A stretch of 64,000 bases of DNA from a virus (IMGVR_UViG_3300027833_001604:1-64000); one strand, 5' to 3'. Shown: positions 2,574 to 51,949, counted from the stretch's first letter. Program-made: numbers and translations. Notes: generated by a model not told the origin, from the letters alone.

Positions 2574-2580
2574 ATAAATA
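2574..2580 (+). promoter_or_regulatory. T4-like late promoter (ATAAATA)
   Basis: Intergenic ATAAATACT heading the putative virion-cargo cluster; motif recurs before other genes. Confidence 0.7.
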
Positions 2581-2608: not shown

Positions 2609-3490
2609 ATGCGATTACACAATTTATTTGAATCAGACACACCAGAATCATTAACTGAAGATTATCTTGATATTGAGATTACTGAAGACTTTGCTATTGA
2701 AAGCAGAGTATTGGAATTCACAGAAGATGGTGGAGCAATTATTGAGCTTGATGAACAAGCACAAGAATTAGTCGATTTAGACGAAGAAACCCTTAATGAA
2801 TTTATACCATTAGCAATTGGTGCCGCTGCATTAGGCATGACAGCCTATGATGCTTATAGAAATTACAAGCAATATAAAGCAGGCGAAATTACAAAGGGTG
2901 ATCTAGCAAAGCGTGTAGGCATGGATGCTGCTATTGGAATTACAACAGGCGGTATTGGTAAACTTGCAAGCAAGGCATACAAAGGTGCTAAAGCCGGTAT
3001 TAAATCATTTAAGACAAACAGAGCGGCAGCTAAAATTGATACACCAACTACTCCAGTTGCAAAAACTACTCCGCCACCAGTTGCTAAAACTACAAAACCA
3101 AAAGGTAAAGGCAAAGGTAAAATTGCAAGAAAATTAGATAACCTTGTTCCAAATAGTTATGGTAGTAGATCATCATATGATAACCCATTACAAAGAGCGG
3201 TAAAGAACTTCTCATTTGAAGATGTAAACGAAGCAGAATACCAAGGACGTAAAGTTAAACTAAACAAACCTATGCAAGGTGATGTTAAAAAGTCAAAAGT
3301 ATATGTAAAGAACCCAAAAGGCAACGTAGTTAAAGTAAACTTTGGTCACGGCGGAAGCAGTGCTAAAGGTAAAACTATGAGTATTAAAAAGAATAACCCA
3401 GCACGTAGAAAATCATTTCGTGCTAGACATAACTGTAGTAATCCAGGACCAAAGCATAAAGCACGTTATTGGTCATGTAAAGCGTGGTAA
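2609..3490 (+). CDS. putative head-associated modular protein with basic C-terminal domain
   Basis: MRLHNLFE leader; Gly/Ala-rich hydrophobic segment; C-terminal EAEYQGRKVKL...ARRKSFRARHNC...YWSC module typical of large phages. Confidence 0.65.
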   Translation: MRLHNLFESDTPESLTEDYLDIEITEDFAIESRVLEFTEDGGAIIELDEQAQELVDLDEETLNEFIPLAIGAAALGMTAYDAYRNYKQYKAGEITKGDLAKRVGMDAAIGITTGGIGKLASKAYKGAKAGIKSFKTNRAAAKIDTPTTPVAKTTPPPVAKTTKPKGKGKGKIARKLDNLVPNSYGSRSSYDNPLQRAVKNFSFEDVNEAEYQGRKVKLNKPMQGDVKKSKVYVKNPKGNVVKVNFGHGGSSAKGKTMSIKKNNPARRKSFRARHNCSNPGPKHKARYWSCKAW

Positions 3491-3494
3491 TCCT

Positions 3495-3803
3495 ATGTTC
3501 ATTAGGGAGATTACCGAAAACAAAGCAATAGAAATGAAAATTAGCGATTTGACTATCAGTGATGCTGGTATGGCAATCGCACAATCAGTAGGTGGCGGAA
3601 GTAGAACAGATGCTCCGTTGGCAGTTACAAAACTTCCATCAGGTCATGTATATCTTGTAAATGGGTATCATAGATTGGTAGATGCTATGCAGGCTGGTAA
3701 AGATACTGTATCAGTAAAATATGTTCCATATGAAAAAGTAGAAATACTTTGGAAACAAGAACGTGAACAAGATATCAAATACGGTAAACAGTTTAATGAA
3801 TAA
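3495..3803 (+). CDS. ParB/Srx-like N-terminal domain protein
   Basis: YLVNGYHRL motif; start moved to MFIREITE. Confidence 0.6.
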   Translation: MFIREITENKAIEMKISDLTISDAGMAIAQSVGGGSRTDAPLAVTKLPSGHVYLVNGYHRLVDAMQAGKDTVSVKYVPYEKVEILWKQEREQDIKYGKQFNE

Positions 3804-4467
3804 GCTATTTGCATTTGGATGTAGTATGACGTCAGGCGCTGCGTTAGATGACGTATGGGATTTTGAAAATAATGTCCCGATTAATAAGCCAAGTAAGTTT
3901 GCATGGCCGCAACTGTTAGCAGATCAAATGAATTTAGAATGTGTTAACTTAGCAGTAAGTGGTTCTAGTAATAAAGAAATAAGCCATACAATAATTAATA
4001 CACCTAACATTACGTCAAATGATGTAGTGATTGTGCAATGGACAAATATAAATAGATGGTGCGTAATACAAGACGATTTATCTGTTAGGCAAATTGTTCC
4101 TAAAGACACAGGTGTAACAAAATTATACTACAGTAATTTGCATACAACCAGTGATTCATTATTTGATATAGAAATGAGACGCTCGTGGGCAGATTTATAT
4201 TTTAAAAATTTAGGTGTTACTATATATCATATACGCAGCAGAAGTGAACTTACAGATATAATGACGTTAAAAGACAGAGTAAATAGAACAATTGCAGAAT
4301 CTTCTATATTACATTTACAATCTAACGTTGAAGACATACAACAATCTTTAAAAACATCTGCCAATGATGCAGGTATAATGTTTAAAAAAGGCCATCCATG
4401 TAAAAACGCACATCGATTACATTCTTCTCAACTATTTGAACAAATAAAAGATATGGAGGTAGCATGA
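3796..4467 (+). CDS. SGNH/GDSL-like hydrolase/acyltransferase
   Basis: AFGCSMTSG, NLAVSGSSN, C-terminal GHP..AH. Confidence 0.65.
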   Translation: MNKLFAFGCSMTSGAALDDVWDFENNVPINKPSKFAWPQLLADQMNLECVNLAVSGSSNKEISHTIINTPNITSNDVVIVQWTNINRWCVIQDDLSVRQIVPKDTGVTKLYYSNLHTTSDSLFDIEMRRSWADLYFKNLGVTIYHIRSRSELTDIMTLKDRVNRTIAESSILHLQSNVEDIQQSLKTSANDAGIMFKKGHPCKNAHRLHSSQLFEQIKDMEVA

Positions 4468-4715
4468 ACGTAAGTAAAGAAAACATTTGGCATTTCACTT
4501 GTGATCACTGCATGGGTTTTTGGAGTGTAGCAACCATGGATAACTGGAAGCCTACAAATTTATATTGCACTCATTGTGGTAAACAAAATAAAAATGACAT
4601 GTGTTCATGCGGGCACAAAATTGTAAATTGTGATTGTGCGCCTGGATGCAAGTGTGAATGTAACAAGCGTTACTTAGATTCCGAAACAAGTTTTGATATG
4701 GAGAAATACACATGA
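4464..4715 (+). CDS. Cys-rich zinc-finger/metallothionein-like protein
   Basis: CDHC, CTHC, CSCGH and CDCAPGCKCEC. Confidence 0.6.
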   Translation: MNVSKENIWHFTCDHCMGFWSVATMDNWKPTNLYCTHCGKQNKNDMCSCGHKIVNCDCAPGCKCECNKRYLDSETSFDMEKYT

Positions 4716-4939
4716 CACAAGACGATATTTATAGATTACAATATCTTGCAGGTATCATAGACAAGCAAGGTGATACTATAAAACCAACTGATGAATCTAA
4801 TATAAGTATTGTTGGAAGTGCCAAAGGTGAATACATGCGTAAGCATAATGTTAAGCCAGGCACTGATGAATGGTTTAAATTATGGTTCAGTAGACCAAAG
4901 TTAACTGGCGAAGACCCTACACCAAAGCAAGGCGGATGA
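4712..4939 (+). CDS. hypothetical phage protein (LxxLAGI motif)
   Basis: RLQYLAGI and PGTDEWFKLWF; ATGA overlap. Confidence 0.65.
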   Translation: MTQDDIYRLQYLAGIIDKQGDTIKPTDESNISIVGSAKGEYMRKHNVKPGTDEWFKLWFSRPKLTGEDPTPKQGG

Positions 4940-4940
4940 C

Positions 4941-6089
4941 ATGTTAATCAACGAAGTTATAACTCTAAAGGAAGAAGCATTAGATATTAACTCTATTGTA
5001 ACACCTGCAATCAAATACTTGGATAAAGTATTTAAAGATAATAACTTTGAAATCCGCATAGTTGGCGGAGCAGTGCGTGACATTGCACTAAACAAATCAC
5101 CCAAAGATATTGACTTCGCCTCAGATGCAACACCAGATGAAATGATTGCTATGTTTGATAAAGAAGCAATCAAATACATTCCTACAGGTTTACAGCACGG
5201 AACAATTACCGCAGTTGTAAACGGAGAAGATTTTGAAATCACAACACTAAGAGCAGACAAAGAAACAGATGGTAGACATGCCGAAGTTGAGTTTGTTAAG
5301 AGTTGGGAAGAGGATGCTAAACGCAGAGACTTAACATACAATGCTATGAGCATGGATATCGATGGCGAGCTATACGATTACCACGATGGCATGGACGATC
5401 TACAAAACAAAGTAAGTAAATTTGTAGGTGATCCAGAACAAAGAATTACAGAAGATTATTTACGTATACTACGTTACTTCCGTTTCCAAGGCAGGTTAGC
5501 AGAGCCTACTTGGGATAAAGATACATTACAAGCAATTAAAAAACATGCTAAAGGACTATCTGGCGTAAGCGCCGAGAGAATATGGGCAGAAATGGGCAAA
5601 GCACTTTCAGGACAAAATGTTGCAAGTTTAGTATCTACAATGCACAAAACAGGTGTAGCACAAGTAATAGGATTAAACGTAAGCAATTTAAGTGTAATAA
5701 AAGATGGTGGCAATCCAATTATAGCATTGGCACAATTAGACAACAGTATAGATATTGCAAAGCGTTGGAAAATGAAAAACACAGAAGCAGAGTTATTGGG
5801 CTTTTTAGTTAAGCACAAAAACGATCCACTTGATCAAAAGAAAGTGGAAGATATGATTGCTGATGGTGTTAAGCGTGAGCTTATTACAGCACTAGCATCA
5901 ATGCAAAACAAAAACGTAAACATAGATGCAAAAGTTCCAGACTTTCCAGTTAGTGGCGCAGACTTAATTGCAACAGGCATGAAGCCAGGACCAGACTTAG
6001 GTAAGAAACTTGCACAACTAAAGCAACAATGGAAAGCTGGTAATTTTAAAGCCAGTAAGGAAGATTTGCTAAATACTAGCAAGGAGTAA
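4941..6089 (+). CDS. cca: class II tRNA nucleotidyltransferase (CCA-adding enzyme)
   Basis: VGGAVRD, DIDFA, FEITTLR, DAKRRDLTYNAM, EDYLRILRYFRF, SAERIWAE and C-terminal PVSGADL..GMKPGP motifs. Confidence 0.92.
   Translation: MLINEVITLKEEALDINSIVTPAIKYLDKVFKDNNFEIRIVGGAVRDIALNKSPKDIDFASDATPDEMIAMFDKEAIKYIPTGLQHGTITAVVNGEDFEITTLRADKETDGRHAEVEFVKSWEEDAKRRDLTYNAMSMDIDGELYDYHDGMDDLQNKVSKFVGDPEQRITEDYLRILRYFRFQGRLAEPTWDKDTLQAIKKHAKGLSGVSAERIWAEMGKALSGQNVASLVSTMHKTGVAQVIGLNVSNLSVIKDGGNPIIALAQLDNSIDIAKRWKMKNTEAELLGFLVKHKNDPLDQKKVEDMIADGVKRELITALASMQNKNVNIDAKVPDFPVSGADLIATGMKPGPDLGKKLAQLKQQWKAGNFKASKEDLLNTSKE
6069..6075 (+). promoter_or_regulatory. late promoter (CTAAATA)
   Basis: TAAATACT upstream of the AAGGAG RBS of the gene at 6094. 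Confidence 0.55.
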
Positions 6090-6093
6090 CACA

Positions 6094-7938
6094 ATGAGAA
6101 TTACAGAAGTAGACAACCCAGTAACACAGGCTGATATCGATCAGTTAGAAGTGTTCGCTGACCGTTTGTTTGCTAAAGTAGGCATTGATGTAGAATTTAC
6201 TCGACACTTTTTAGACAGAGTTAATGACGAACGTAATATAAAACAAATTACAATGTCAGAACTTACACGACTATTTAAACAAGAATACAAACGTTGGGGC
6301 AAGCCAATTGCACAACTAGGCCCAGATGCTGAAGCAGTAATGAAAGATATGGCAACAAATATTAACTTGCCATTTGCACTACGTTGGGATCATAAGAATA
6401 ATGAATTAGATCTTATTGCTAAAACAGTAATGCGTAAAGCAAACTTCACAACATCCAATCAAGAGTTTGCAGTAGAAGATGGATACAAGTCTATGTTTAG
6501 ACCAAGTGCATATGAGTTAGCTGCAGAAAGATTACACAGCGTATTACAACGTAAAGAAAAAGAAAACGGCGGTGTATTTAGACATGCGTTAGGTTGGTAT
6601 GCATCAAAGATTGCTGGTGGGTTTAAAAACATTGATACCAGAGAACTAATATCATTCTATCAAAAGAATTTTGATACAGTATTAAGTGAAAGTGATTTAC
6701 CTTATATTACAGAAGAAGCCGCATTTAAACTTGATTACGATCAATTAAGAATAAAAATACCTGCTAACGATAATTCTAAACCAATCAAAGGCGAAGTTAT
6801 TGATCTAAATGCTCGTAGAGCAGCAGCCAAAGAAGCACTCGGCAAAATGTCTGATGCAGAGAAAAAAGCCGCAAATGAATTTATTAAAAAGAACAAAACT
6901 CTACTACAAAGACTATCAGCAGTTGGAGCCAGATCAGCAGCAAGACATGGAATAGCAACAGTATCAAGTGCGGTAACAGGACCTGCAGCACCAGTTGTAG
7001 CAACAGTATTAAACGTTACATTGCTAGGGTGGGATTTAGTTGACGCAGGCATAGAAGTATGGAAGTGGGCAAGATCAAGCAATAGTAAAGACATTGGACA
7101 AGGTAATGCAAATAGAGAGTTTGGCAATGATTTTGCTTTAGAAATTCCAACATATCCTACAACGTGGCCAATGGATAGAACAGGCACAGTATTAAAAAGA
7201 AAACAATCAGAATGGATGAAAGAATTTGGTAATACACATTTACGTAATGGCAAACTTAATCCATCTGCAGGTTATCAAGATGCAATAATGAAAATTGCAC
7301 AAGCAAATGTTGATGCAAAAAATAAAGCAAGTGATAACGAGCTTATTAAAAAAGAACCAGAAAAAGAATTAGAAAAGGCTCCTGTTATTAACTTTACAGA
7401 AATTCCACCGTTGGAAGTACCAGAATTCAAACCAGGCGAAATTGAAATACCTAGGCCTGCAAAAGACCGAGAAATAGATATTGAAATTCCAAAGTTCCCT
7501 AATGCACCAAGCAAAGATAAACCATTTAAACAACCAGAGGCTCCAACAGGGCCTAAGATAGATCCAAACTACACCCCAAAACAACCAAAGAATCCAAACT
7601 ACGAACCGGATAATCCAGAGGTGCCGAACAGCACTCCATCTGATCAGCCAGATAAAATTCCACAGCCGCTTAACGCACCTCATAAGGATATACCATTCAT
7701 TCCAAATACAAATGTAACTGATCCAGAAATAGCATTTAAGAATGATCCAGCAGTAGTAGTTGTTCCTCCACCAGCTGCAGGCGGAAACGGGAAGAATCCA
7801 CCAGCCAATAAGAACAATAACAAACAAAAGAAACGCAAACAGAAAAAAGATTGGGGTTCTGGAGGCAGTAGTGAATATGATGATCCATTACAACGTTGGC
7901 AAAAGAAATATGGAACATGGGAGCCCACTGACAGATGA
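6094..7938 (+). CDS. putative head/ejection modular protein with Pro-rich C-terminus
   Basis: MRITEV leader, FTRHFLDRVND domain, hydrophobic Gly/Ala segment, Pro-rich tail. Confidence 0.6.
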   Translation: MRITEVDNPVTQADIDQLEVFADRLFAKVGIDVEFTRHFLDRVNDERNIKQITMSELTRLFKQEYKRWGKPIAQLGPDAEAVMKDMATNINLPFALRWDHKNNELDLIAKTVMRKANFTTSNQEFAVEDGYKSMFRPSAYELAAERLHSVLQRKEKENGGVFRHALGWYASKIAGGFKNIDTRELISFYQKNFDTVLSESDLPYITEEAAFKLDYDQLRIKIPANDNSKPIKGEVIDLNARRAAAKEALGKMSDAEKKAANEFIKKNKTLLQRLSAVGARSAARHGIATVSSAVTGPAAPVVATVLNVTLLGWDLVDAGIEVWKWARSSNSKDIGQGNANREFGNDFALEIPTYPTTWPMDRTGTVLKRKQSEWMKEFGNTHLRNGKLNPSAGYQDAIMKIAQANVDAKNKASDNELIKKEPEKELEKAPVINFTEIPPLEVPEFKPGEIEIPRPAKDREIDIEIPKFPNAPSKDKPFKQPEAPTGPKIDPNYTPKQPKNPNYEPDNPEVPNSTPSDQPDKIPQPLNAPHKDIPFIPNTNVTDPEIAFKNDPAVVVVPPPAAGGNGKNPPANKNNNKQKKRKQKKDWGSGGSSEYDDPLQRWQKKYGTWEPTDR

Positions 7939-8126
7939 AGATAAAAGACATACTAAAGTTACCTAGTATTGAAATTGGAGACGAGATACTAGTTGGCAAA
8001 TTTAAAAATCGTAAAGCTACAGTAACTGGCTTTGCAACAGACGAGAATAACCAGCCTGTTTTAAAAACAACTAAAGGCGATCAAAAACTATTCAAACCAA
8101 GAATAGTTAAATTAATGGACAAGTAA
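7935..8126 (+). CDS. small beta-rich hypothetical protein
   Basis: MKIKDIL leader; ATGA overlap. Confidence 0.65.
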   Translation: MKIKDILKLPSIEIGDEILVGKFKNRKATVTGFATDENNQPVLKTTKGDQKLFKPRIVKLMDK

Positions 8127-8127
8127 G

Positions 8128-9252
8128 ATGAAAATAAATGAAATTAGCTGTTGGGACGGTTACAAAAAACAAGGCACTAAAAAAGGCACTGGTAAAAACA
8201 AAGGCAAGCGTGTAAACAATTGCGTTAAAGAAGCCATAACAAGACCAGGCGATGATACAGATCCATCATTGTGGCAAAGAATTAAAAATTTATACAAAAT
8301 GAATCCATTAGGTACTGATGATAACAAATCTAGACGAAATAAATTAGATGATATTGAATCACGCAGAGCTGACAAAATTCAAAAACGTAATAAACAAGAT
8401 ACAGTTATTAGACAAAAGAATAAAATTAAAGGCGCAGAAGTTGATCAATTATTACGTAATAGGCGCAGAGAAAAAGATGCAGTTGAAGACATGATCGCTG
8501 ATGCAATTGCACAAGACAAATTTGGAAAAGATCATCATGAACTTGATGATCTAGATCGTAAAAATGTTATTAGAACTTCTAGACATCTAGCAAACGATAT
8601 AGAAGCATACCCTGATTTACTTGATGATCCAGATTATCAAGATGATTTTAAGAAAATATATCCACAAGGGTTAGTCCCACAACTTGGAAAAAAATTAGAT
8701 GGAACAGATGCAGATCCAGATTATAGTTGGATGAATCCCTCAAAACCTAAACAAGAATTCAAGCATCCAGCATTTATGACAGTGTATCAATATAACCAAG
8801 ATGGATATGATGATAACCAACAAACAAGACAAATACAAGATAAAAATTATACTCGATCAAAAGTAGCAAAAGATAATAACATAAACTTTGAACCACGACA
8901 AGACATTTACAATCTTGCCACATCACAAGCAAATAAAGAAATAGATGCAAGAATTGCCACTGGAAAAGCTAATATTAAAAATATAGAAATAAAAAGAAAA
9001 CTTAATAAAGCAACAACTACTCCTGCTCCTACTGATAACAGTCAGAAGAAATTTGCAAGAGAAATACAAAACGAAGACGGTGTTATAGTTCCAGGTGTTA
9101 ACACTACAGTAGATGTTAAACCAGGCGAAACTGAACGCCAAGCTGCAAAGTTTGGTAATGGTAAAATTAAGCCACTAATGCCTAAACGAGGCAAGTCACA
9201 AACAATGAATACACTGTATAATCTAGGCTTAGCCGAAAAAGCTTCTAAGTAA
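8128..9252 (+). CDS. putative head-associated modular protein
   Basis: MKINEI leader; CWDGYKKQG...VNNCV module; GVIVPGVNTTVDV module. Confidence 0.6.
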   Translation: MKINEISCWDGYKKQGTKKGTGKNKGKRVNNCVKEAITRPGDDTDPSLWQRIKNLYKMNPLGTDDNKSRRNKLDDIESRRADKIQKRNKQDTVIRQKNKIKGAEVDQLLRNRRREKDAVEDMIADAIAQDKFGKDHHELDDLDRKNVIRTSRHLANDIEAYPDLLDDPDYQDDFKKIYPQGLVPQLGKKLDGTDADPDYSWMNPSKPKQEFKHPAFMTVYQYNQDGYDDNQQTRQIQDKNYTRSKVAKDNNINFEPRQDIYNLATSQANKEIDARIATGKANIKNIEIKRKLNKATTTPAPTDNSQKKFAREIQNEDGVIVPGVNTTVDVKPGETERQAAKFGNGKIKPLMPKRGKSQTMNTLYNLGLAEKASK

Positions 9253-9272
9253 CCACAAAGGATATAGACGTA

Positions 9273-10496
9273 GTGTCTACACCAAGCGAAAATCTAATTA
9301 AAAAATACAACAAATCATTCTGTGTTAAACCATTCACAGAAATATCTAATTCTGCGGTTGGACATAGACAACTTTGTTGTAGAAGCGAAACAATAATTAA
9401 AACAAGTGATGTTAGTAGTTCTTCTATAACCGAAGACTTTTTTAACCACTCAAAGATGAATGAGATAAGAAGAAAAATGTTAGCAGGTGAAACTGTTGAC
9501 GAATGTTGGATGTGTGCAGAATCTGAAGCTATGAGAGGAACATCACATAGAACATTTATAATGCAAGACTTCGATCAAGCTGAAGTTGATGAAATATTTA
9601 AAACTGGTAAAGTAGAATTAAGATCTTTAGACATACGTTTTGGGACTAAATGTAACCTAGCATGTGTAATGTGTAGTCCTGGTAGCAGTAGTTTAATTGC
9701 AAAAGAAGAAGCTGATGATGAATATCAAGTAGTAGACTTAAATGATTTTTCATTAGATGCTATTAAAAAACATTCAAAAGGTATTGTGTTATTCAAAACA
9801 ACAGGTGGCGAACCTATGTTGTTGCCAGCATATAAGAAAACACTTGAGTTTTTTGTAGAGAAAGACCTTGCAAAGAATATAGAGTTTACAACTATTACAA
9901 ACGGCACAGTTGATTACAGCAACTTAATGCCGTTAATGAATCAGTTTAAACATTTTAAAATTAGTCATAGTATAGATGCTGCAGACGAGTCATATAATTA
10001 TGTTAGATGGCCTGGAAAAATGTCACGCATAGAGCGTATACATAAATGTGTCATAGAAAATGCTAAACCATATAAAAACATAAGACTTGAGTTTGGTGCA
10101 ACTATACATGTATTAAATGTAAATCAAGTAGTAAAGATTGCCAAATACTTAGCTGGATTAGATCAAATTGTTGAAGATAATTATGCAGTAGACATGGTAT
10201 ACGATCCAGACTATATGCAACCAGGGTTAGTTCCTAAACAAGTAATAGATGATTTAGAAAATGAATACCACGAATGGAGTAAGGTAGCTCCAACAGGATA
10301 CAGAGGACGAAAAGAATTGTTTGACTTTATTAAGGTTTTGCGTTATAATTATGATAAAATAAATAGTAATAAGGAACACAAACAAGAATTACTTGATCAA
10401 CTAGAAGCTAAAACAATATTTTGGAAAGCTAAAAGAAACCTAGATGTTCGTGATTATATTCCATATTATGAGGTGATGCAAACTAAATGCGAATAG
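9273..10496 (+). CDS. radical SAM protein with N-terminal twitch/SPASM-like domain
   Basis: CVKPF...LCC...CWMC, then CNLACVMC and GGEP. Confidence 0.88.
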   Translation: MSTPSENLIKKYNKSFCVKPFTEISNSAVGHRQLCCRSETIIKTSDVSSSSITEDFFNHSKMNEIRRKMLAGETVDECWMCAESEAMRGTSHRTFIMQDFDQAEVDEIFKTGKVELRSLDIRFGTKCNLACVMCSPGSSSLIAKEEADDEYQVVDLNDFSLDAIKKHSKGIVLFKTTGGEPMLLPAYKKTLEFFVEKDLAKNIEFTTITNGTVDYSNLMPLMNQFKHFKISHSIDAADESYNYVRWPGKMSRIERIHKCVIENAKPYKNIRLEFGATIHVLNVNQVVKIAKYLAGLDQIVEDNYAVDMVYDPDYMQPGLVPKQVIDDLENEYHEWSKVAPTGYRGRKELFDFIKVLRYNYDKINSNKEHKQELLDQLEAKTIFWKAKRNLDVRDYIPYYEVMQTKCE

Positions 10497-10900
10497 TATT
10501 AAAAAGATTAACTACAAAAGACTTATATAAATTAACATCTATATTAGATTATGATACTGCTATATTGGCAAATATTGATTGGCCATTTAATAGAAGTGCA
10601 GCAATGCAATTTATTAATGATTATAATACATGGGGAGTTTGGGTTAACCAAGACACATTAGTAGGAGCTGTTGAAGTGAAAAACGATTTAGAAACAGCAT
10701 ATTTTATTAAAAAGGGCTGGCGAAACACAGGCGTAGGCACACGTGCCATCGAACTATGTGTTAAAGAATTTGGCGACCAACAATTATGGTGTGTTATTAA
10801 TCCAGACAATAAAGCAAGTTTAAAAGTAGCACAAAAAGGCGGTTTACGAGTAAAATTTATTGACAATGATAGTAAAGACGTAATTACTGTTGTAAAATAG
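10487..10900 (+). CDS. GNAT acetyltransferase (RimJ/RimL-like)
   Basis: WRNTGVGTRA motif A and NKASLKVAQKGG motif B. Confidence 0.85.
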   Translation: MRIVLKRLTTKDLYKLTSILDYDTAILANIDWPFNRSAAMQFINDYNTWGVWVNQDTLVGAVEVKNDLETAYFIKKGWRNTGVGTRAIELCVKEFGDQQLWCVINPDNKASLKVAQKGGLRVKFIDNDSKDVITVVK

Positions 10901-10908
10901 AGAATGAT

Positions 10909-11166
10909 ATGGCTAATAAGAAGATTACCAAAGAAGATCAAACAGCTACAGAGGGTCCAATGAACAATGTAGCTAGTGAAGATGCAATGGTTTATGCTAA
11001 TGCTAACCCAGATAAACCGCTTGATGTTAAACGAAAACGTATTGTTGTAGCTAAAAAACAACAAATAAAGAAAAGTAGTAAGAAAGCAAACCGAAGAATT
11101 AATAACAGTTTGCTGAAAAATATAGATGAATTGCAAAAAGATAAGCAAAAGAAATCAAATAGATAA
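10909..11166 (+). CDS. basic hypothetical protein
   Basis: Lys-rich ORF in operon position. Confidence 0.6.
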   Translation: MANKKITKEDQTATEGPMNNVASEDAMVYANANPDKPLDVKRKRIVVAKKQQIKKSSKKANRRINNSLLKNIDELQKDKQKKSNR

Positions 11167-11169
11167 ATA
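11163..11169 (+). promoter_or_regulatory. late promoter, leaderless arrangement
   Basis: ATAAATA-ctagt-ATG(11175). Confidence 0.75.
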
Positions 11170-11174
11170 CTAGT

Positions 11175-11369
11175 ATGAAAATATATGACATCATAACAGA
11201 AGATGCTGAAGCAGGTTCTACAATGGCAGGTAATATTGCCAGTGTTTCTTTTCCATTATTTGGAAAAAAGAAGATGATCAGGCGTGCTGTTGATCCAAAA
11301 GGATATTTAGGTGACGGTAAGATTAAAAAACAATCTACTGGATACAATACGGAGGTTAAGTTAAAATGA
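11175..11369 (+). CDS. small putative head protein
   Basis: MKIYDIITE leader followed by DAEAGSTMAGNIASV. Confidence 0.7.
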   Translation: MKIYDIITEDAEAGSTMAGNIASVSFPLFGKKKMIRRAVDPKGYLGDGKIKKQSTGYNTEVKLK

Positions 11370-11665
11370 AGATTAACGAGATCAACGAATCAATATACCA
11401 GATGAATCCTGAAGAACCAATGAATCCTGAAGTCTTAATACAAGGTTATGGTAGATTAAATTTAAAGCAATTAGAAGATAAAGTAAGCAGAATGTTCGAA
11501 GAGCTTGCGGTTAGAGCCAAACAAGGCGATTGGGAAGGTGTGCAACACAACCTAAACAAAGGCCTAGTGCAGGAATTTATTAAAACCATCAATGTAGCAT
11601 ATGATGAGTTAGAACAAAAACGAAGACGCGGCGGTAAGAACAGTCGTGGCATCAATCAGAGGTAA
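11366..11665 (+). CDS. putative head protein
   Basis: MKINEINE leader; GGAGG RBS. Confidence 0.7.
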   Translation: MKINEINESIYQMNPEEPMNPEVLIQGYGRLNLKQLEDKVSRMFEELAVRAKQGDWEGVQHNLNKGLVQEFIKTINVAYDELEQKRRRGGKNSRGINQR

Positions 11666-11670
11666 CGACT

Positions 11671-12795
11671 ATGAGCAATAAAATTGACAACACATTTAGC
11701 AAAGCAGCAATCGAATTAGCTAAATTAGAAAAAGCATTTGCTGAGAATAGCAAATTAGAAAAAGCAGTTATGGAATCAAACGGAGATGTTTCAGTTATAG
11801 CTGAAGTTAGATCTCACATAGCACAAGCAATTAAATCATTAACACCACAAACTATTACAGAAGGTGTATTAGATGATGATGACGATGATGGGTTTATGGC
11901 CCGCAGTCAACTATACTTCTTAGCCAGAGATGCAATTAAGTTGCACAGCGTTATAGATGATAGAGATGACTTGGAGCCATGGGTTCAAAGTAAAATTGCT
12001 CAAGCTAGTAAAGACATGGATTCAGTTCGTCGTTACACTGAATACAATGCCATGAAAGCTCAAGTAGAACCAGAGATGCAGCCAGAAATGCAACCAGCGC
12101 CAGAAGTAGAATCATTAGAAGAAGATCCAGTAGATCGTAAAATGCAAGTAACAAATGCTGATAAAGAGGGAAACACTCCAGCATGGCAACGTTATAAAGC
12201 AGGTGATCCTAGATATGAATACAAAGCACCAGTAAAAGAGTTTGCCGGAGCAGATGGTCCAGGTAAAGCAAGTATGCCACAGGGCATTGCACTAGCAGGT
12301 GATAGCATTTGGTTAAACAGAGACGGAATGCAGTATGCAGATGACGTTGTAACAATTACAGATTACAAAGTTGAAGAAACTGACGGTATGATTGAAGTAT
12401 GGGTAGAACATAATGCTCCTTGGGAAATTTATACAGACTCAGGTTTTGCAAAAGGTATCAGCAGAATACTAGGTATTGATGTTGACTGGAGTGAACAAGG
12501 TATGCAAGCACAAGGTGTAGCACATTTAGAAGGCGACACTGACCTAGATGAAGCTATTCGTCCAGTAAGAAGTGCAGCTTCTAAACTAAACCAAATTGGA
12601 CAAGGCGTTCGTAATAAAACTAATGACGAAACACCAATGAAAGTTGGCGAACAGAAAAAGAAAAAGAAATACAAAGAAGCAGTTGCAGAAGAAACTAAGT
12701 TTGATGATAAGCCAGAGCACAGTGAATTAAAAACAGTTGCACAGGACATGTTTAAGAATGCATTAGCAAACGCTAAGAAAAAAGCGAGGAAATAA
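11671..12795 (+). CDS. acidic modular putative head/core protein
   Basis: MARSQLY...LEPWVQSKI module; many [ILV]-x-E junctions. Confidence 0.65.
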   Translation: MSNKIDNTFSKAAIELAKLEKAFAENSKLEKAVMESNGDVSVIAEVRSHIAQAIKSLTPQTITEGVLDDDDDDGFMARSQLYFLARDAIKLHSVIDDRDDLEPWVQSKIAQASKDMDSVRRYTEYNAMKAQVEPEMQPEMQPAPEVESLEEDPVDRKMQVTNADKEGNTPAWQRYKAGDPRYEYKAPVKEFAGADGPGKASMPQGIALAGDSIWLNRDGMQYADDVVTITDYKVEETDGMIEVWVEHNAPWEIYTDSGFAKGISRILGIDVDWSEQGMQAQGVAHLEGDTDLDEAIRPVRSAASKLNQIGQGVRNKTNDETPMKVGEQKKKKKYKEAVAEETKFDDKPEHSELKTVAQDMFKNALANAKKKARK

Positions 12796-12797
12796 TT

Positions 12798-13835
12798 ATG
12801 AAAGCTGATCAATTAAACGAGAAATTCGACAAAGCAGATTGGGATGAAAATGAATCGCATAACCTACATACTGAAAATGCAGTAGAGCTTGCTCATGCAT
12901 TTGGAACTCGAGACGAAGTAGAAGCTATGGAAAGAATAGCTGATCAGCATATGCGTAGAGGACACATTCTACCACACGAAATTGAAGAACGTAGTGCATT
13001 AATGAAGAAGTATTATAACATGTTAGAGAATGAAACAAATCCAACTGTTAGATCTAAAATGGAAGGCTACAAAGTTATGCCTCCAATGGATAGCAAGTAT
13101 GTAGCACGTAAAGGACTTGAAGGTCCTTTTACTACATTAAGCGGTAAGGTTGTTTATTACGATCCTAAAGAAGGAAAGTATTACGATCCAGACACAGACA
13201 TTTATCTTTCATACGATGAATTCCAACAGTATGATAACGATTACAGTGGCATAGGTGATGAAGAAGCAGATGATTTTGTTAAAGATATTGAACCAAAAGA
13301 AACTGTAAAAGGCCCAAGAGGTCATTTAAGTTCTATTGTAAATGCAGGCAAAGACATAGAAGATGAATCGTTTGAAGTTAACCCAAATGCAGGACACAGA
13401 GACCAAATGGCACATCCAGAAAATCAAATGGGCACAGGCCCAGGAATTAAAACTAAGCCAAAGTTACGTCCAGCACAACTTGGTAAGAAATTTCCAAAAA
13501 CTAAGCCAAAGTTACGCCCAGATAATTTAGGCGAAGCAGGCGGATATTATACACAACCAGTATATGATATGATTGAACAGCATGGTTATGAAAAAGTAAT
13601 GCACGAACTATTAACAAGTTTAGATGCAGATGTAATTCAAGACTTTTTACAACGTGCAGAGTTTGATGAATCAGTAAGTGAGACACTAAGTCCAGAAGAG
13701 AAAAAACTAGTTGCTAAAATGTATAACAAAGATGGCACACTAACTGATCTAGGCAAAAAAGTTATGAGAGAAGGCAAATACGTTAGCGATGCACAACGCA
13801 AAGCGGTTCATGCCTCAAAAGCGGAGAAAAAATAA
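12798..13835 (+). CDS. modular putative head protein
   Basis: MKADQLNE leader; GLEGPF...YYDPKEGKYYDP, KTKPKLRP x2 and SDAQRKAVHA modules. Confidence 0.65.
   Translation: MKADQLNEKFDKADWDENESHNLHTENAVELAHAFGTRDEVEAMERIADQHMRRGHILPHEIEERSALMKKYYNMLENETNPTVRSKMEGYKVMPPMDSKYVARKGLEGPFTTLSGKVVYYDPKEGKYYDPDTDIYLSYDEFQQYDNDYSGIGDEEADDFVKDIEPKETVKGPRGHLSSIVNAGKDIEDESFEVNPNAGHRDQMAHPENQMGTGPGIKTKPKLRPAQLGKKFPKTKPKLRPDNLGEAGGYYTQPVYDMIEQHGYEKVMHELLTSLDADVIQDFLQRAEFDESVSETLSPEEKKLVAKMYNKDGTLTDLGKKVMREGKYVSDAQRKAVHASKAEKK
13449..13516 (+). repeat. 20-bp direct repeat encoding part of KTKPKLRP
   Basis: aaaactaagccaaagttacg at 13449-13468 and 13497-13516. Confidence 0.85.
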
Positions 13836-14866
13836 TGGGTATATTAAGCGATATAGTAAATGAAGATAAGGTAGAGATGTGCCCAGAAGCATGTTGTGGA
13901 AAGCCTATAACAGAATGCAAATGTGGACCAGATTGCGAACACTGTGATTGTCATTCAAAAAATGCAATAAACGAAGGCACACAAGGTTGTGCTGATTGCG
14001 AATGGATTAAAGACGAAACAGACGGCGACATCACTACATGTGATGATTGTGCTGCAGAAAAACGTGAAAAAACTAATGAAGCAGAAAAGCGTTGGAAACA
14101 AACTAGTATGTCTCCACAAGAAGCAATAGCAAAATACGGCAAACCAAACGTAAAAGTTAAAAAAGGTGCATTGCGTAATGGCGATGACATGGTAGAAGTA
14201 TTTGTTGAAGGTTATAAGATCCGTGACAAATCACGTGGATATGGCGTAGCAGATGCGACATATAAAACACGTAAAGCAGCCCAAGATGCGGCAATAATGA
14301 AAGCGGCTTCAAACGGCGGCGATTGGGAAGTATTTGTTGAATCATATTCACCAGGTGATGTAGCTGAACTAGTAGGTGATATACATTATTCTAACAATCA
14401 TTATGATAGAGATGAGAGAAAAAGCGAAATGCAGGCCGATGCAGCCAAGCTAATGATGGCAGCAAAAAGCACAGGTGACGAAGATATTATAGCCAGTGCA
14501 GAATCTGTAGAACATTTGTGTCATCACTATGATTATGATGAAGCCAAAGATATGTTAAACAATAAACTACAAGAACTTAATCAGTTAGTAGGTGGCAACG
14601 AATTAGAAGTAGAAGAATCATATTCACCAGGTGATGAAATGGAAGATGGCGTAGTAAGTAATTGCTGTGGTGCTCCATTAATGGACTACAATGATGGACA
14701 TGGTAGATGTAGTGATTGTAAAGAAATGGCAGCCGGTGAAACTGATGAAGAATACTACGAATCAAAAGTTATGCAAGCCAGAGAACAAATAGCTCAAGAA
14801 GAATCACCTGTAATCGAAGCGGATGCCGAACTACAAAGGATTCAAGACTTAGTTAAGTTTAGATAA
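13835..14866 (+). CDS. Cys-rich modular putative head protein
   Basis: MGILSDIVNE leader; three Cys clusters; duplicated EVFVE and ESYSPGD junctions. Confidence 0.65.
   Translation: MGILSDIVNEDKVEMCPEACCGKPITECKCGPDCEHCDCHSKNAINEGTQGCADCEWIKDETDGDITTCDDCAAEKREKTNEAEKRWKQTSMSPQEAIAKYGKPNVKVKKGALRNGDDMVEVFVEGYKIRDKSRGYGVADATYKTRKAAQDAAIMKAASNGGDWEVFVESYSPGDVAELVGDIHYSNNHYDRDERKSEMQADAAKLMMAAKSTGDEDIIASAESVEHLCHHYDYDEAKDMLNNKLQELNQLVGGNELEVEESYSPGDEMEDGVVSNCCGAPLMDYNDGHGRCSDCKEMAAGETDEEYYESKVMQAREQIAQEESPVIEADAELQRIQDLVKFR
14195..14636 (+). repeat. two pairs of exact direct repeats bounding protein modules
   Basis: gaagtatttgttgaa at 14195-14209 and 14327-14341; gaatcatattcaccaggtgatg at 14339-14360 and 14615-14636. 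Confidence 0.9.
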
Positions 14867-14877
14867 GGAATAATAAA

Positions 14878-15918
14878 ATGAGATTACACCATTTATTTGA
14901 AAAGTCAATTGATCCTAAGCAGGCTAAAAAGATGCAACGTATCTATGCCAAGATGCAAGAAAATCCAGCAGTTATTGACGAGCTATGGAAGACAGTATCA
15001 ACAATGACTGCCGCAGAGGGTGGTGAACTTAAAAATAGAATACTTGTAGCAGTAGATCCAAAAAATACAGGCAATGAACAAGACCAAACATATGCAGAAG
15101 GTTTTATCGAAGGCTTAGTTAATGCTATTGATAAAACAGAAGGCACCACTGAAGAACGCATTGCGTTTGCTAAAGGGCTAGGAAAAGTAAGTCATATCGA
15201 TTCAACTGCATTACTACAACCATTAGCTGGTTGGGGTGACTGGTTAACTGGTACTGATTTCAGTAAAAGACTATTTGAAACATTATTTCTTGACCCAGCG
15301 TTCTTACAAGCAAACAAAGGACCAGGTGAATTTGCACTTGCAATACTAAGTCCTGATATTTCACTTACTGGTGCTAAGGGCGATATTCAAGTCAAGGGTA
15401 AACCAATTGAAGTAAAGTCAGGAAAAACAAGTTCTGGTGGTAGATTAACACCAACTGATGGAACACTTGGACAGTTATACAAGAACAAAGAATTTTGGGC
15501 AGCTATTGCAGGTGAAGATGAAGCAAAAGCAGGACAGTTAGCAGGTGTTAATAAAGTTAATGCAAACAACTATGCACAATTCTTAGATCAATACAACTTA
15601 GGTCCTGAACAATCAACACAAATATTAAAAGCAATCTTTAAACACCCAGATGCAGCACCGATGGCACAGTCAATTGGTAGATCTGGAACAAATGTAACAG
15701 CAGCAGACTTAATTAAGTTGTCAGTAAAGAACTATGGTGCATCACAAGGTGACGATCATTTCCTAATCCTACAAAAAGACATTAGAGCAAGTTTATATTT
15801 TGATGTAGACAACTTAGATCCAGTGCTTAATAGACTATCCTTCTCATTACCATTAATTGATAGTGATGCAAGAAGCCAAGGTAAAGCACAAATTGGTATC
15901 TTAAAGAAATCAAGATAA
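14878..15918 (+). CDS. PD-(D/E)XK nuclease-like protein
   Basis: GPGEFALA...GDIQVKGKPIEVK signature; MRLHHLFE leader. Confidence 0.55.
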   Translation: MRLHHLFEKSIDPKQAKKMQRIYAKMQENPAVIDELWKTVSTMTAAEGGELKNRILVAVDPKNTGNEQDQTYAEGFIEGLVNAIDKTEGTTEERIAFAKGLGKVSHIDSTALLQPLAGWGDWLTGTDFSKRLFETLFLDPAFLQANKGPGEFALAILSPDISLTGAKGDIQVKGKPIEVKSGKTSSGGRLTPTDGTLGQLYKNKEFWAAIAGEDEAKAGQLAGVNKVNANNYAQFLDQYNLGPEQSTQILKAIFKHPDAAPMAQSIGRSGTNVTAADLIKLSVKNYGASQGDDHFLILQKDIRASLYFDVDNLDPVLNRLSFSLPLIDSDARSQGKAQIGILKKSR

Positions 15919-16202: not shown

Positions 16203-16994
16203 ATGGATAAAGTATTAATAATAGGTTGTAGCTTTTCAGCAGGCTGGTATGAACTTCAGATTAAATATCCTCACATTTCAAAGGTTACGGAAGAAAAAGT
16301 ATTTCATGACTATGGATGGTATGACGAATTGCCTGACCATAATCAATATACAGTGTATGCACACCCAGGTGGTGGATATTTAAACTATGCTTACCTATTA
16401 TATCAACTTTATAACTCTGGAGAACTCCAGAAATATTCTAAATGTATAATACAAGAAACGTGGGAACCTCGTATTTCTTTGTATCAGACCGACAATTATT
16501 CGCTCGACAGAAAAGAAGAAAAAATACATTTTTATCTTAAACACTGCAAGTTAGAGTTTATAAAAAGTATGGCTCTTATGGAACAAGGTAACATAATTAA
16601 CACATTACAAACAACATTTGACGTAGAGCTAACCGTGCCGTGGAAAAATTACTTGACAGATATTGGAAATTCTATATACTTAGAGGCAGCAGTAGATAGT
16701 AGTGCATTAGCAATTGATCGTCTTTTACAAGATGCAAATATTCCTACTTATAGGTTTTGTGTCAACCTATCCAGTGTTGATAGATTCGACGATAGCATTA
16801 GTAACAATAAATGGCCACATATAAAACATATGAAACAGATGGATATGTTGAATGAAATGAGTGAAATATACAAACATCATTTATGCTGGCCAAAAGGAAC
16901 TCATTTCCCAGATGAAAGATCAGGCCATTTAACGAAGCATGGAACAATGTTACTTGGAAAACTAGTAGCAACTAAATTAACAGACTTTTTGTAA
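16203..16994 (+). CDS. SGNH-like protein (paralog 1)
   Basis: IIGCSFSAG ... GHLT..G. Confidence 0.6.
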   Translation: MDKVLIIGCSFSAGWYELQIKYPHISKVTEEKVFHDYGWYDELPDHNQYTVYAHPGGGYLNYAYLLYQLYNSGELQKYSKCIIQETWEPRISLYQTDNYSLDRKEEKIHFYLKHCKLEFIKSMALMEQGNIINTLQTTFDVELTVPWKNYLTDIGNSIYLEAAVDSSALAIDRLLQDANIPTYRFCVNLSSVDRFDDSISNNKWPHIKHMKQMDMLNEMSEIYKHHLCWPKGTHFPDERSGHLTKHGTMLLGKLVATKLTDFL

Positions 16995-17011: not shown

Positions 17012-17782
17012 TTGAAAGATAAAGTATTAATAATAGGTTGTAGCTTTTCAGCAGGCTGGTGGACACTCGCAGAGAATCAAGGTAAAAAGAATACAAGTGC
17101 ATGCGAAGATTTACATGACGATTATGGATGGTATGATGAGCTTCCTAGCGAGGATGAATACACAATCTATTCACATCCAGCTGGTGGATATTTAAATTAT
17201 GCTCATCTAATTAATAAACTATCAGATTCTGGAGAGCTAAGTCAATATTCTAAATGTATAATACAAGAAACATGGGAACCACGTGTTTGTTTATTTGTGC
17301 ATGATGATTATATGCCTGTTTTATCCAGAGACAATATACATTTATATCAACAACGTGGTTTAAAATCATTTGTAAAGAATATGATATTACCAGGTAAAAG
17401 TGGATTAGTAGATGATATATCAAAAAGATGGTTTACTAGGTTTAGCGATGCTCAAAAAAACTACTTGACAGATATTGGAAACTCTGTATACTTAGATACA
17501 GCAATAGAAAGCAGTGCATTAGCAATTGATCGCATATTACAAAATGCAAATATTCCTGCTTATAGATTTAATGTTAGTGAAAAGCAAAATCATTTAGAAC
17601 TATCACATATAAGACACATAACTGAACTAGATATACACAAAGAAATGTTTACAATTTTTGATATACATAGAACTGGATCAGGATTGCCAGAACCACTTGG
17701 CACGTTAGGTGGACATCTAACAAAACAAGGAACAAAACTAATGGGCAAAGCAGTAGCCAATAAATTAAAGGATTTTTTGTGA
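17012..17782 (+). CDS. SGNH-like protein (paralog 2, tandem duplicate)
   Basis: Same motifs; 43 bp identical between 16206-16248 and 17018-17060. Confidence 0.6.
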   Translation: MKDKVLIIGCSFSAGWWTLAENQGKKNTSACEDLHDDYGWYDELPSEDEYTIYSHPAGGYLNYAHLINKLSDSGELSQYSKCIIQETWEPRVCLFVHDDYMPVLSRDNIHLYQQRGLKSFVKNMILPGKSGLVDDISKRWFTRFSDAQKNYLTDIGNSVYLDTAIESSALAIDRILQNANIPAYRFNVSEKQNHLELSHIRHITELDIHKEMFTIFDIHRTGSGLPEPLGTLGGHLTKQGTKLMGKAVANKLKDFL

Positions 17783-18699: not shown

Positions 18700-18954
18700 A
18701 TGACATCATTTTCTGAAGCAGACGTAAACAAATTGAAGCATCTTATTAAAGAAGGCATTCAAGTAACACAAGAAGTAGAAACCTTGCGAGAAGGACTTCG
18801 CGATACAGTAAAAGCAATCGCAGAAGAGATGGATATTAAGCCATCAATTCTTAATAAAGCAGTAAAGGTTGCATATAAGGCAGAATTTGCCAAAGCACGT
18901 GATGAGTTCGATGAACTTGAAACAATCCTAACAACAGTGGGCCGTGATACTTAA
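18700..18954 (+). CDS. DsbA/GapR-like dsDNA-binding protein
   Basis: Helical 84 aa, LREGLRDTVKAIAEEMDIKPSILNKAVK pattern, directly upstream of the polymerase. Confidence 0.65.
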   Translation: MTSFSEADVNKLKHLIKEGIQVTQEVETLREGLRDTVKAIAEEMDIKPSILNKAVKVAYKAEFAKARDEFDELETILTTVGRDT

Positions 18955-29077: not shown

Positions 29078-29247
29078 CAGACAAAGAATACTCAGAATAT
29101 GGGTATAGAGGATTAGAAGAAGTTTTAGCCAAAGATGCAGAAATCAAAGAACTTAAAAAAGAGATTTCTGAGTTAAAGATGAAACTGCAACAAGCAGAAA
29201 ATCAAAACAACAATCTTATGGCAACAGCTAACTTACCTAAATACTAA
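29074..29247 (+). CDS. small coiled-coil protein (57 aa, not in ORF track)
   Basis: ATGA overlap; MTDKEYSEYGYRGLEEVLAKDAEIKELKKEISELKMKLQQ... Confidence 0.65.
   Translation: MTDKEYSEYGYRGLEEVLAKDAEIKELKKEISELKMKLQQAENQNNNLMATANLPKY
29237..29243 (+). promoter_or_regulatory. late promoter, leaderless arrangement
   Basis: CTAAATA-ctaat-ATG(29249). Confidence 0.65.
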
Positions 29248-29248
29248 T

Positions 29249-29650
29249 ATGATCGAATATAAAGGCAAAGCCTACACTGAATTAAACTTCAATGAATGCA
29301 TTGAGTTTGAAAAAGAACTATTGAAAAAAGTTATTGCTGCCGGCAGGGCTGGTATGGGTGATGAATTAATCCACCAACTAAACGTTTTTATTGATTTGCT
29401 ACGAGACCAAAAGGCAGAGGCAATTAGGAAAGAGATGAAGCAAAAAGGTGACGACAAAGAAGACGGTATTGTATTAGATACTTCTCCACCTGAATTAGAG
29501 ATTATAGAACCTGAGCCAGAATATCCAAAAATGAAGAAAACACAAGTCGAATTAACTAGATCAGATAAGTTAAAAATAGCAGACATGTATAAGCCATCAA
29601 TTGATCCAGAAGCAGTTAAATTAGCAGAGACATACAAAAATGAAAAATAA
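29249..29650 (+). CDS. hypothetical protein
   Basis: ORF in operon position. Confidence 0.65.
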   Translation: MIEYKGKAYTELNFNECIEFEKELLKKVIAAGRAGMGDELIHQLNVFIDLLRDQKAEAIRKEMKQKGDDKEDGIVLDTSPPELEIIEPEPEYPKMKKTQVELTRSDKLKIADMYKPSIDPEAVKLAETYKNEK

Positions 29651-51936: not shown

Positions 51937-51941
51937 AGTTG

Positions 51942-51949
51942 TATTTATA
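51942..51949 (-). promoter_or_regulatory. late promoter TATAAATA, leaderless arrangement
   Basis: On - strand: TATAAATA-caact-ATG(51936). Confidence 0.75.

Follow-up and report, generated by a model that had tools for sequence, protein, structure and literature searches.

Phage T4 loads its internal proteins into the head by means of a short N-terminal peptide. The internal proteins IPII and IPIII start MKTYQEFIAE, IPI starts MKTFKEF, and the peptide MKTYQEFIAE is the experimentally defined capsid-targeting sequence (CTS) (PMC9026906 section 2.6; PMC5694885). It is both necessary and sufficient for loading proteins into heads; targeting depends on residues 4 and 7, and cutting on residues 8 and 10 (PMC9026906 section 2.6). 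The prohead protease gp21 processes it in IPI, IPII, IPIII and Alt (Mullaney and Black 1996, as reviewed in PMC9026906, PMC3012670 and PMC5694885). Across the T-even phages, diverse internal proteins have this tag alone in common (PMC3012670). In the phiKZ-like giant phages (phiKZ, 201phi2-1 and SPN3US), ejection or inner-body proteins are processed by a gp21-related protease (PMC5694885, PMC10052503). Here, we describe a block of genes at positions 2609-15918 of a 64-kb stretch of viral DNA (IMGVR_UViG_3300027833_001604, positions 1-64000; the whole stretch is referred to as the window), in which about ten otherwise unrelated proteins begin with a short leader peptide of a common form. By analogy with T4, these leader proteins are probably packed into the capsid, and we put at roughly 0.72 the probability that their common N-termini represent a shortened version of a T4-type capsid-targeting propeptide, with a cargo that is retained in the head and capable of entering the host.

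The window is the first part of a 109,013-bp linear IMG/VR contig (G000), which CheckV rates as 30% complete, so that the phage genome should measure roughly 360 kb. Its G+C content is 35%. Its DNA polymerase (18954-21647) shares 42-49% identity with the enzymes of Phosso, Atu_ph07, Vibrio phage 2.275.O, GAP32, CBB and 121Q, all giant myoviruses of the T4 superfamily; polymerase and head genes of the lineage are T4-type, and it is not phiKZ-like. Unlike T4, the phage of the window is a giant marine relative of the RaK2/GAP32/Atu_ph07 group. A megablast search of the block against 50,697 phage records gave no nucleotide-level relative, and a tblastn search of phage records with the protein of gene 14878 (genes are named by their first nucleotide) gave no match. 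Six related contigs, taken for a DNA polymerase 67-93% identical to that of the window or for an orthologue of 14878, were fetched whole.

A short N-terminal leader and its likeness to the T4 capsid-targeting sequence

The sequence-only reading had picked out eleven open reading frames (ORFs) whose otherwise unrelated products share short N-termini, usually ending in Glu, and this description holds in all its parts. All eleven are present on the + strand with the starts and N-termini given in Table 1; in ten of them an [ILV]-x-E ends at residue 5-12, placing a hydrophobic-x-Glu, the cleavage motif of gp21, at the end of the leader (the exception is 7935); and an all-against-all BLASTP comparison returns one weak low-complexity match (2609 with 6094, E 0.001). 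The leader occupies the first 8-12 residues, with two or three hydrophobic positions spaced three apart and then, usually, [ILV]-x-Glu.

Of the 18 block genes, 10 have an [ILV]-x-E within the first 12 residues, as do 17 of the 136 on the rest of the 109-kb contig (Fisher p about 1e-4, subject to the caveat that the region was picked post hoc), and the rate outside the block, 13%, equals that after internal Met. The strict start M-[KR]-[ILFA]-x-[DEQN]-[ILV] is carried by 7/18 block genes compared with 1/136 elsewhere, an enrichment of the leader in the block over other genes; replication and metabolism genes are without it, as had been claimed. For the seven lineage contigs the strict pattern was widened (V also allowed at position 3 and F at position 6), and in this form it matches 4.1% of N-termini versus 0.19% of internal Met. 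Six to eight matches are found on each of the window's contig and five related contigs, where about 0.2-0.5 are expected (binomial p 1e-6 to 1e-10), and three on the related contig G001, where 0.22 are expected (p 0.0016). On G007, G006, G008 and G009 many strict matches lie just upstream of the DNA polymerase gene, as in the window; their clustering in gene order is significant in G000 and G007 only, the other contigs being enriched with the matches more spread out. In the six related contigs the start thus recurs at 20-30 times the expected frequency.

Like the T4 internal proteins, the block proteins would carry a short N-terminal propeptide on otherwise unrelated sequences, with hydrophobic residues three apart followed by [ILV]-x-Glu. 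The window leader differs from that of T4 in being one or two residues shorter (MKIYDIITE and MRLHHLFE versus MKTYQEFIAE) and in having Ile or Leu for the T4 Tyr or Phe; it appears to be the T4 form minus one or two residues, hydrophobic spacing and final Glu being kept. Sister proteins of the window families have leaders closer still to that of T4, namely MRAYEFLTE and MKKFSEFIIE, and in PANV1 MKSFEQYIEE and MKTFKQFTLE. In PANV1, which is T4-like and encodes a gp21 protease, some ten neighbouring genes have T4-type starts (e.g. MKSFDQFVAE, MKTFSEYLTE and MKTFSTFMAE), two of which are homologous to window proteins, gp42 to the N-domain of 6094 and gp34 to the start of 8128; the paper on PANV1 is without virion proteomics. 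The phiKZ-like phages resemble the present one as giant phages in which many head-internal proteins are cut after Glu by a related protease, but their propeptides mostly exceed 100 residues and are cut at A/S/G-x-E, and no short shared N-terminal tag is known there. As a separate observation, the annotated start of AUZ94910.1 in Atu_ph07 (MF403008, 1501-2256) looks too far downstream: the open frame begins MKTLQDYLTE, which matches the start of a family annotated as 'virion structural protein' in several RaK2-like phages (phrog_14802), whose marine and Atu_ph07 members start MKTLKQYLAE, MKSFTEYLTE or MKDLNTILTE.

The leader outlasts the divergence of the proteins behind it. In the 14878 family it is kept down to 22-28% identity (MRAYEFLTE, MRYREFITE, MRAFEFLTE, MRASQFLRE, MKKFSEFIIE), while the 8-20 residues that follow vary and carry indels before the conserved core is reached. 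Nearly all of 74 homologues begin M-R-x-x-[ED]-F-x-x-E, mostly as MRAYEFLTE or MRYREFITE; conservation is at least 90% at R2 and E8, and complete at D169, E178 and K180 (33 sequences). Orthologues show synonymous codon changes within the leader (TTA/TTG/CTA, GAA/GAG, TAT/TAC), and in the first ten codons third-position A+T is the same as for other genes in G000 and in its two closest relatives, G007 and G006, and somewhat raised in G008 and G009. The leader appears to be kept by selection on the protein, not by a nucleotide effect.

It also appears to be an add-on to complete enzyme domains, as judged from a tRNA CCA-adding enzyme and a cytidylyltransferase. The 4941 protein matches Pfam PF01743 (PolyA_pol head domain, E 1e-34) from residue 38 and PF12627 (RNA-binding domain, E 1e-10), and has thus both class II tRNA nucleotidyltransferase domains, with 31-41% identity to annotated phage CCA enzymes. 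Its alignments to other phage CCA enzymes begin at residue 17-27, and its closest cultured homologue (Atu_ph07, 41% identical) is without the 18-19 extra N-terminal residues; the G006 orthologue starts MRIGELLIYEE. The cytidylyltransferase carries a leader in G011, Melnitz, S-SSM5 and S-CREM2, and that of RaK2 is leaderless.

Head genes, late-promoter-like elements and virion proteins

The related contig G011 (107.5 kb, 29% complete) carries both a leader gene and a head module. On it, a 59% identical orthologue of 14878, starting MRAYEFLTE, adjoins the large terminase gene, and the head module runs in the order capsid protein, scaffold-like protein, gp21-type protease, acidic protein, 74-aa ORF and portal. 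The small ORF between portal and protease starts MRARDFILNE in G011 (the 74-aa ORF), MKLVELFE in Vibrio phage 2.275.O and MLDEIFE in CBB, and the ORF in the gp68 position starts MKSYQEFLVE in PANV1 and MKSFKQLVE in phiM12; T4 gp67 and gp68, which start MEGLIE... and MLLIPE..., have no IPIII-type leader. As in T4, the presumed cargo genes themselves lie outside the head module, at a locus that varies among relatives while the leader is kept. The sequence-only reading had proposed to locate a gp21-like protease elsewhere in the genome, and its presence can be affirmed for the lineage, in the Peptidase_S77 (gp21-type) gene of G011 and of every cultured relative tested, and not for the window's own contig, which holds about 30% of the genome. 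The protease family is the same as in T4, and the capsid protein of the lineage keeps L-x-E where T4 gp23 has it: Leu63 and Glu65 of gp23 (L-T-E) are invariant in the alignment, the site reading L-A-E in G011 and L-R-E in CBB. We take this site to be where gp21 cuts gp23, and a protease specificity for L/I-x-E appears to have been kept in the lineage.

TAAATA late promoters had been claimed ahead of 2609, 6094 and 11175, and such elements are found before all three start codons (Table 1); that of 11175 is conserved with its spacing in the relatives L002 and L007. On G011, which encodes a gp55-like late sigma factor, NTAAATA precedes the head-module ORF, the large terminase, the tail tube and virion genes; its distance from the ATG is often exactly 5 nt, as for the large terminase, a virion protein and the small head-module ORF. 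The leader genes may be expressed late, from the TAAATA elements. Within the window, NTAAATA lies exactly 5 nt before an ATG at 11164-11177, 29238-29251 and 51937-51950 (- strand), and a second class of NTAAATA stands 18-28 nt upstream and is followed by a GGAG ribosome site. Because the element is only 5 nt from the ATG in the first class, late transcripts may be leaderless or nearly so, and the mRNA of 11175 may be leaderless in this sense.

For the T4-like cyanophage S-CREM2, a virion proteome of 52 proteins has been published (PMC10665884, Table 3). Its genome (OR473000) was fetched and 177 genes were called. Five of its proteins have T4-type leaders, namely gp6 (an S-adenosylmethionine (SAM) hydrolase, MKDFDSFLEE), gp13 (MKDLHSFLTE), gp14 (a kinase, MKRFDAFLTE), gp136 (MQTFSMFFSE) and gp154 (a cytidylyltransferase, MKNFSSFLTE), and all five are in the proteome, versus 0 of 126 among the genes that were not detected (Fisher p 0.0017, or 1e-4 when the comparison is restricted to non-structural genes). 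The protein gp15, with the short form MNFSEFNE, is also virion-detected. Homologues of gp154 are encoded in the lineage of the window, on G011 (24515, MRAREILE, 38% identity) and on G001 (89098, MFLRELFE), and the L-F-E type of leader seen in the window therefore heads a homologue of a virion-detected enzyme.

Virions of the T4-like cyanophages S-CREM2, S-SCSM1 and S-SZBM1 contain cytidylyltransferase/nicotinamide mononucleotide adenylyltransferase (NMNAT)-like proteins, kinases and a SAM hydrolase (PMC10665884), and capsid targeting is nowhere mentioned in that paper. The likeness to the present system lies in enzymes found in purified virions, headed by leaders in S-CREM2 and, for the cytidylyltransferase, homologous to leader proteins of the lineage (G011 and G001); the difference is that the window has no homologue of those enzymes, the link running through relatives of its phage. 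A literature search for cytidylyltransferase in virions yielded nothing useful. Separately, the virion-detected 'Cas9-like nuclease' gp12 of S-CREM2 (OR473000, 7704-10313, - strand) has a leader-like LRFASFMAE-A at residues 17-25, and its annotated start may be too far upstream.

Proposed capsid targeting and its rivals

In the model that we favour, the leader proteins would be made late, their leader of 8-12 residues would bind the assembling prohead core, a head protease of the T4 gp21 type would remove it after the Glu, and the mature protein would stay in the head with the DNA and could enter the host on infection. Core binding, cleavage, head retention and injection are proposed by analogy, injection with the DNA being extrapolated from T4. 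In T4, replacing the Glu by Asp stops the trimming and leaves loading intact. The earlier proposal that the leader is a capsid-address tag for diverse cargo, enzymes included, is supported because the leader is an add-on under selection, grades towards the T4 form and is linked to head genes, and because the lineage has the protease and an S-CREM2 virion protein is homologous to leader proteins of relatives; every computational test run agrees with it.

Several observations weigh on the other side. The window leaders, being shorter than that of T4, fail the T4-type pattern, and the likeness is a graded series and not an identity. The first 12 residues of 7935 (MKIKDIL...) hold no Glu, and the homologues of 12798 in L002, L007 and G006 are leaderless, starting MFTKA.... 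The leader proteins show no significant shortage of internal [IL]-x-E motifs, for which the ratio is 0.77 in the window (Poisson p 0.16) and exceeds 1 on G008 and G009. The CCA-adding enzyme, as a tRNA enzyme, is an unusual capsid passenger. For S-CREM2, the leader pattern was written after several of its starts had been seen, and abundant proteins can contaminate virion preparations, as the authors of the proteome state (PMC10665884). Finally, no head protease, capsid or portal gene was found on the 109-kb contig or on ten related contigs searched; the absence of the protease there is uninformative because all of these contigs are fragments.

The alternative that survives best shares the first step with capsid targeting: the leader would direct proteins to the prohead core, and the proteins would be core or scaffold material, degraded and expelled at maturation like T4 gp22, gp67 and gp68. 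It would account for the leader on the small ORF in the gp67 position and for the acidic or low-complexity nature of several block proteins (pI 4.5-5.3), and T4 core proteins are indeed cut into fragments that leave the head (PMC5694885). We nevertheless consider it unlikely for the leader proteins as a set, since several of them are complete enzymes, homologues of such enzymes are detected in mature S-CREM2 virions and internal cut motifs are not enriched; the acidic, low-complexity members may be degraded core material.

Somewhat less likely again is a tag that serves sorting or turnover and has nothing to do with the capsid, for instance a signal for a host AAA+ protease or for docking to a complex for replication or nucleotide metabolism. 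Nucleotides or RNA are what many of the tagged proteins act on, the block adjoins replication genes, and some known N-terminal signals of ClpX start Met-basic-hydrophobic, all of which would fit such a role; it leaves unexplained, however, the leader on head-module ORFs, the near identity to the T4 CTS in sister families and the detection of leader proteins in S-CREM2 virions.

A third explanation, to which we give little credence, has the leader recognized by a modifying enzyme that the block itself encodes (the radical-SAM enzyme 9273 or the acetyltransferase 10487), in the manner of ribosomally synthesized and post-translationally modified peptides, among which a single maturase can act on many precursors. 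The genome is unusually rich in radical-SAM enzymes; in the window and in G007 a radical-SAM gene falls within the block, and in L002, L007 and G011 one adjoins it. An orthologue of 9273, however, is found in G007 only, the nearest radical-SAM genes in G006, G008 and G009 are 16-40 kb from the leader block, and the tagged proteins are large enzymes, not peptides. Moreover, SPASM-domain genes are absent from S-CREM2, PANV1, Melnitz, Vibrio phage 2.275.O and T4, yet leaders head several proteins in S-CREM2, PANV1, Melnitz and T4 and the head-module ORF in Vibrio phage 2.275.O; a tie of the leader to SPASM radical-SAM enzymes was rejected on these grounds. On G000, eight SPASM-domain matches (five above the Pfam cut-off) lie at 33162-73378, none of them being 9273.

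The weakest candidate, that there is no protein signal and that A+U-rich early codons for translation initiation or base composition produce the pattern, as the A/U-rich codons of Lys, Ile, Asn, Glu and Asp in a genome of 35% G+C might suggest, was rejected on the third-position A+T (normal in G000, G007 and G006, higher in G008 and G009) and the synonymous changes under a fixed peptide, the pattern being also tied to position (a hydrophobic residue at 3 and at 6, an acidic or polar one at 5), about 8x the product of positional residue frequencies and about 20x the rate after internal Met.

The block, its probable cargo and what it may mean

Table 1. Genes and promoter-like elements of the leader block, in window coordinates.
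Feature	Position	Strand	Description
TAAATA late-promoter-like element	2575..2580	+	28 nt before ATG of 2609
Leader protein 1	2609..3490	+	293 aa, MRLHNLFE; C-terminal phrog_7595 domain
Possible leader protein, doubtful gene	3495..3803	+	102 aa, MFIREITE
Three leaderless genes	3763..4939	+	SGNH-like protein (by eye), 83-aa Cys-rich protein, 75-aa protein with RLQYLAGI motif
tRNA CCA-adding enzyme	4941..6089	+	382 aa; 18-19 aa N-terminal add-on MLINEVITLKEE
TAAATA late-promoter-like element	6070..6075	+	18 nt before ATG of 6094
Leader protein	6094..7938	+	614 aa, MRITEV
Small basic protein	7935..8126	+	63 aa, MKIKDIL, leader without Glu
Leader protein	8128..9252	+	374 aa, MKINEIS then CWDGYKK...NCVKE motif; very basic, hydrophilic
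Three leaderless genes	9273..11166	+	By eye: radical-SAM-like enzyme, GNAT-like acetyltransferase (10487), 85-aa basic protein
TAAATA late-promoter-like element	11164..11169	+	exactly 5 nt before ATG of 11175
Small leader protein	11175..11369	+	64 aa, MKIYDIITE
Leader protein	11366..11665	+	99 aa, MKINEINE
Acidic leaderless protein	11671..12795	+	374 aa
Leader protein	12798..13835	+	345 aa, MKADQLNE; acidic, internal 25-nt repeat
Leader protein	13835..14866	+	343 aa, MGILSDIVNE; Cys-rich, acidic, exact 22-nt repeat
Leader protein, probably PD-(D/E)xK nuclease-like	14878..15918	+	346 aa, MRLHHLFE

The block appears to be a plastic cargo locus, in which the leader is kept and the proteins behind it are swapped, fused or split (Table 1). 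In G007, whose DNA polymerase is 93% identical to that of the window, the syntenic gene at 14011-15045 keeps MRLHHLFE on a protein only 29% identical to 14878, and the cargo has to all appearance been swapped behind the conserved leader. In G008 and G009, 7935 is joined to the C-module of 8128, and in L007 and G006 the counterpart of 11366 forms the C-terminal module of leader proteins that are longer. The C-terminal domain of 2609, which follows an acidic N-terminal part, a Gly/Ala-rich hydrophobic stretch and a Pro/Lys-rich linker, stands behind other N-termini in relatives, e.g. MRIQDLYE in G009. A 39-nt direct repeat (2594-2632 and 14863-14901, + strand, 85% identical) takes in the ribosome site and the MRLH(N/H)LFE codons of the block's first and last genes, and its two copies might act as arms for recombination by which the entire 12-kb block is exchanged or deleted.

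Among the remaining leader proteins, 6094 consists of a conserved N-domain (residues 7-128), a hydrophobic stretch and a Pro-rich tail, and its N-domain has homologues in PANV1 gp42 (47% identity, behind MKSFEQYIEE), in Melnitz gp31 and at the C-terminus of a phiM12 protein. The Cys motif of 8128 recurs in PANV1 gp34 behind MKTFKQFTLE (the annotated TTG start codon read as Met), and orthologues of 11175 start MKITDIITE and MKINEIISE. The least certain gene is 3495, because its ATG, which follows the stop of 2609 by 5 nt, is internal to a longer frame that opens with GTG and has a weak ribosome site, and because it has no homologue in any relative and only a weak PHROG match. The 22-nt repeat of 13835 (14339-14360 and 14615-14636) encodes ESYSPGD, each copy just after Val-Glu or Glu-Glu, and the 25-nt repeat of 12798 (13449-13473 and 13497-13521) encodes KTKPKLRP. 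Three SGNH/GDSL-like paralogues (assigned by eye; 3763-4467, 16203-16994 and 17012-17782) share a GCS-x-x-x-G start motif and are all leaderless, one lying within the leader block and two just after it.

The last protein of the block, 14878, is probably a PD-(D/E)xK nuclease-like enzyme. Its predicted structure has a predicted local distance difference test score (pLDDT) of 83, and in a wide structural search with the model the best fold matches were the type II restriction enzymes HhaI, NhoI, HinP1I, MspI and PvuII, all weak (Z 2.7-4.1); Foldseek of the model against the PDB gave nothing below E 0.7. In relatives, the tagged proteins include a 5'-nucleotidase, a zeta-toxin-like P-loop kinase and a DUF6267 protein.

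The system is best regarded as a variant, because the principle itself is established for T4. The T4 cargo consists of three or four genes, mainly for small basic proteins, compared with about ten genes here, some of them for sizeable enzymes (the CCA-adding enzyme and the nuclease-like protein); what is new is the short leader, this larger cargo set with its enzymes, and the lineage of giant marine phages. More tentatively, and we regard this as doubtful, the lineage and T4-like marine phages more widely might deliver a kit of enzymes with their DNA by means of a generic, plug-in capsid address, to act before phage genes are expressed. Its members would be the CCA-adding enzyme and the nuclease and, in relatives, the 5'-nucleotidase, the P-loop kinase and the NMNAT-like transferase, with possible roles in tRNA repair and in restoring nucleotide or NAD (nicotinamide adenine dinucleotide) pools attacked by host defence.

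If capsid targeting by the leader is borne out, the minimal tag of 8-9 residues would offer a convenient means of packing foreign proteins into phage heads, and a short sequence rule would predict, from the genome alone, the delivered protein payload of uncultured phages of the T4 superfamily. It would also account for the recurring enzymes of cyanophage virion proteomes, which the paper on the S-CREM2 proteome does not connect to a targeting tag (PMC10665884). The cargo list, with a CCA-adding enzyme, a nuclease-like protein and, in relatives, nucleotide enzymes, suggests that pre-made enzymes for counter-defence or takeover of the host may be common in marine phages.

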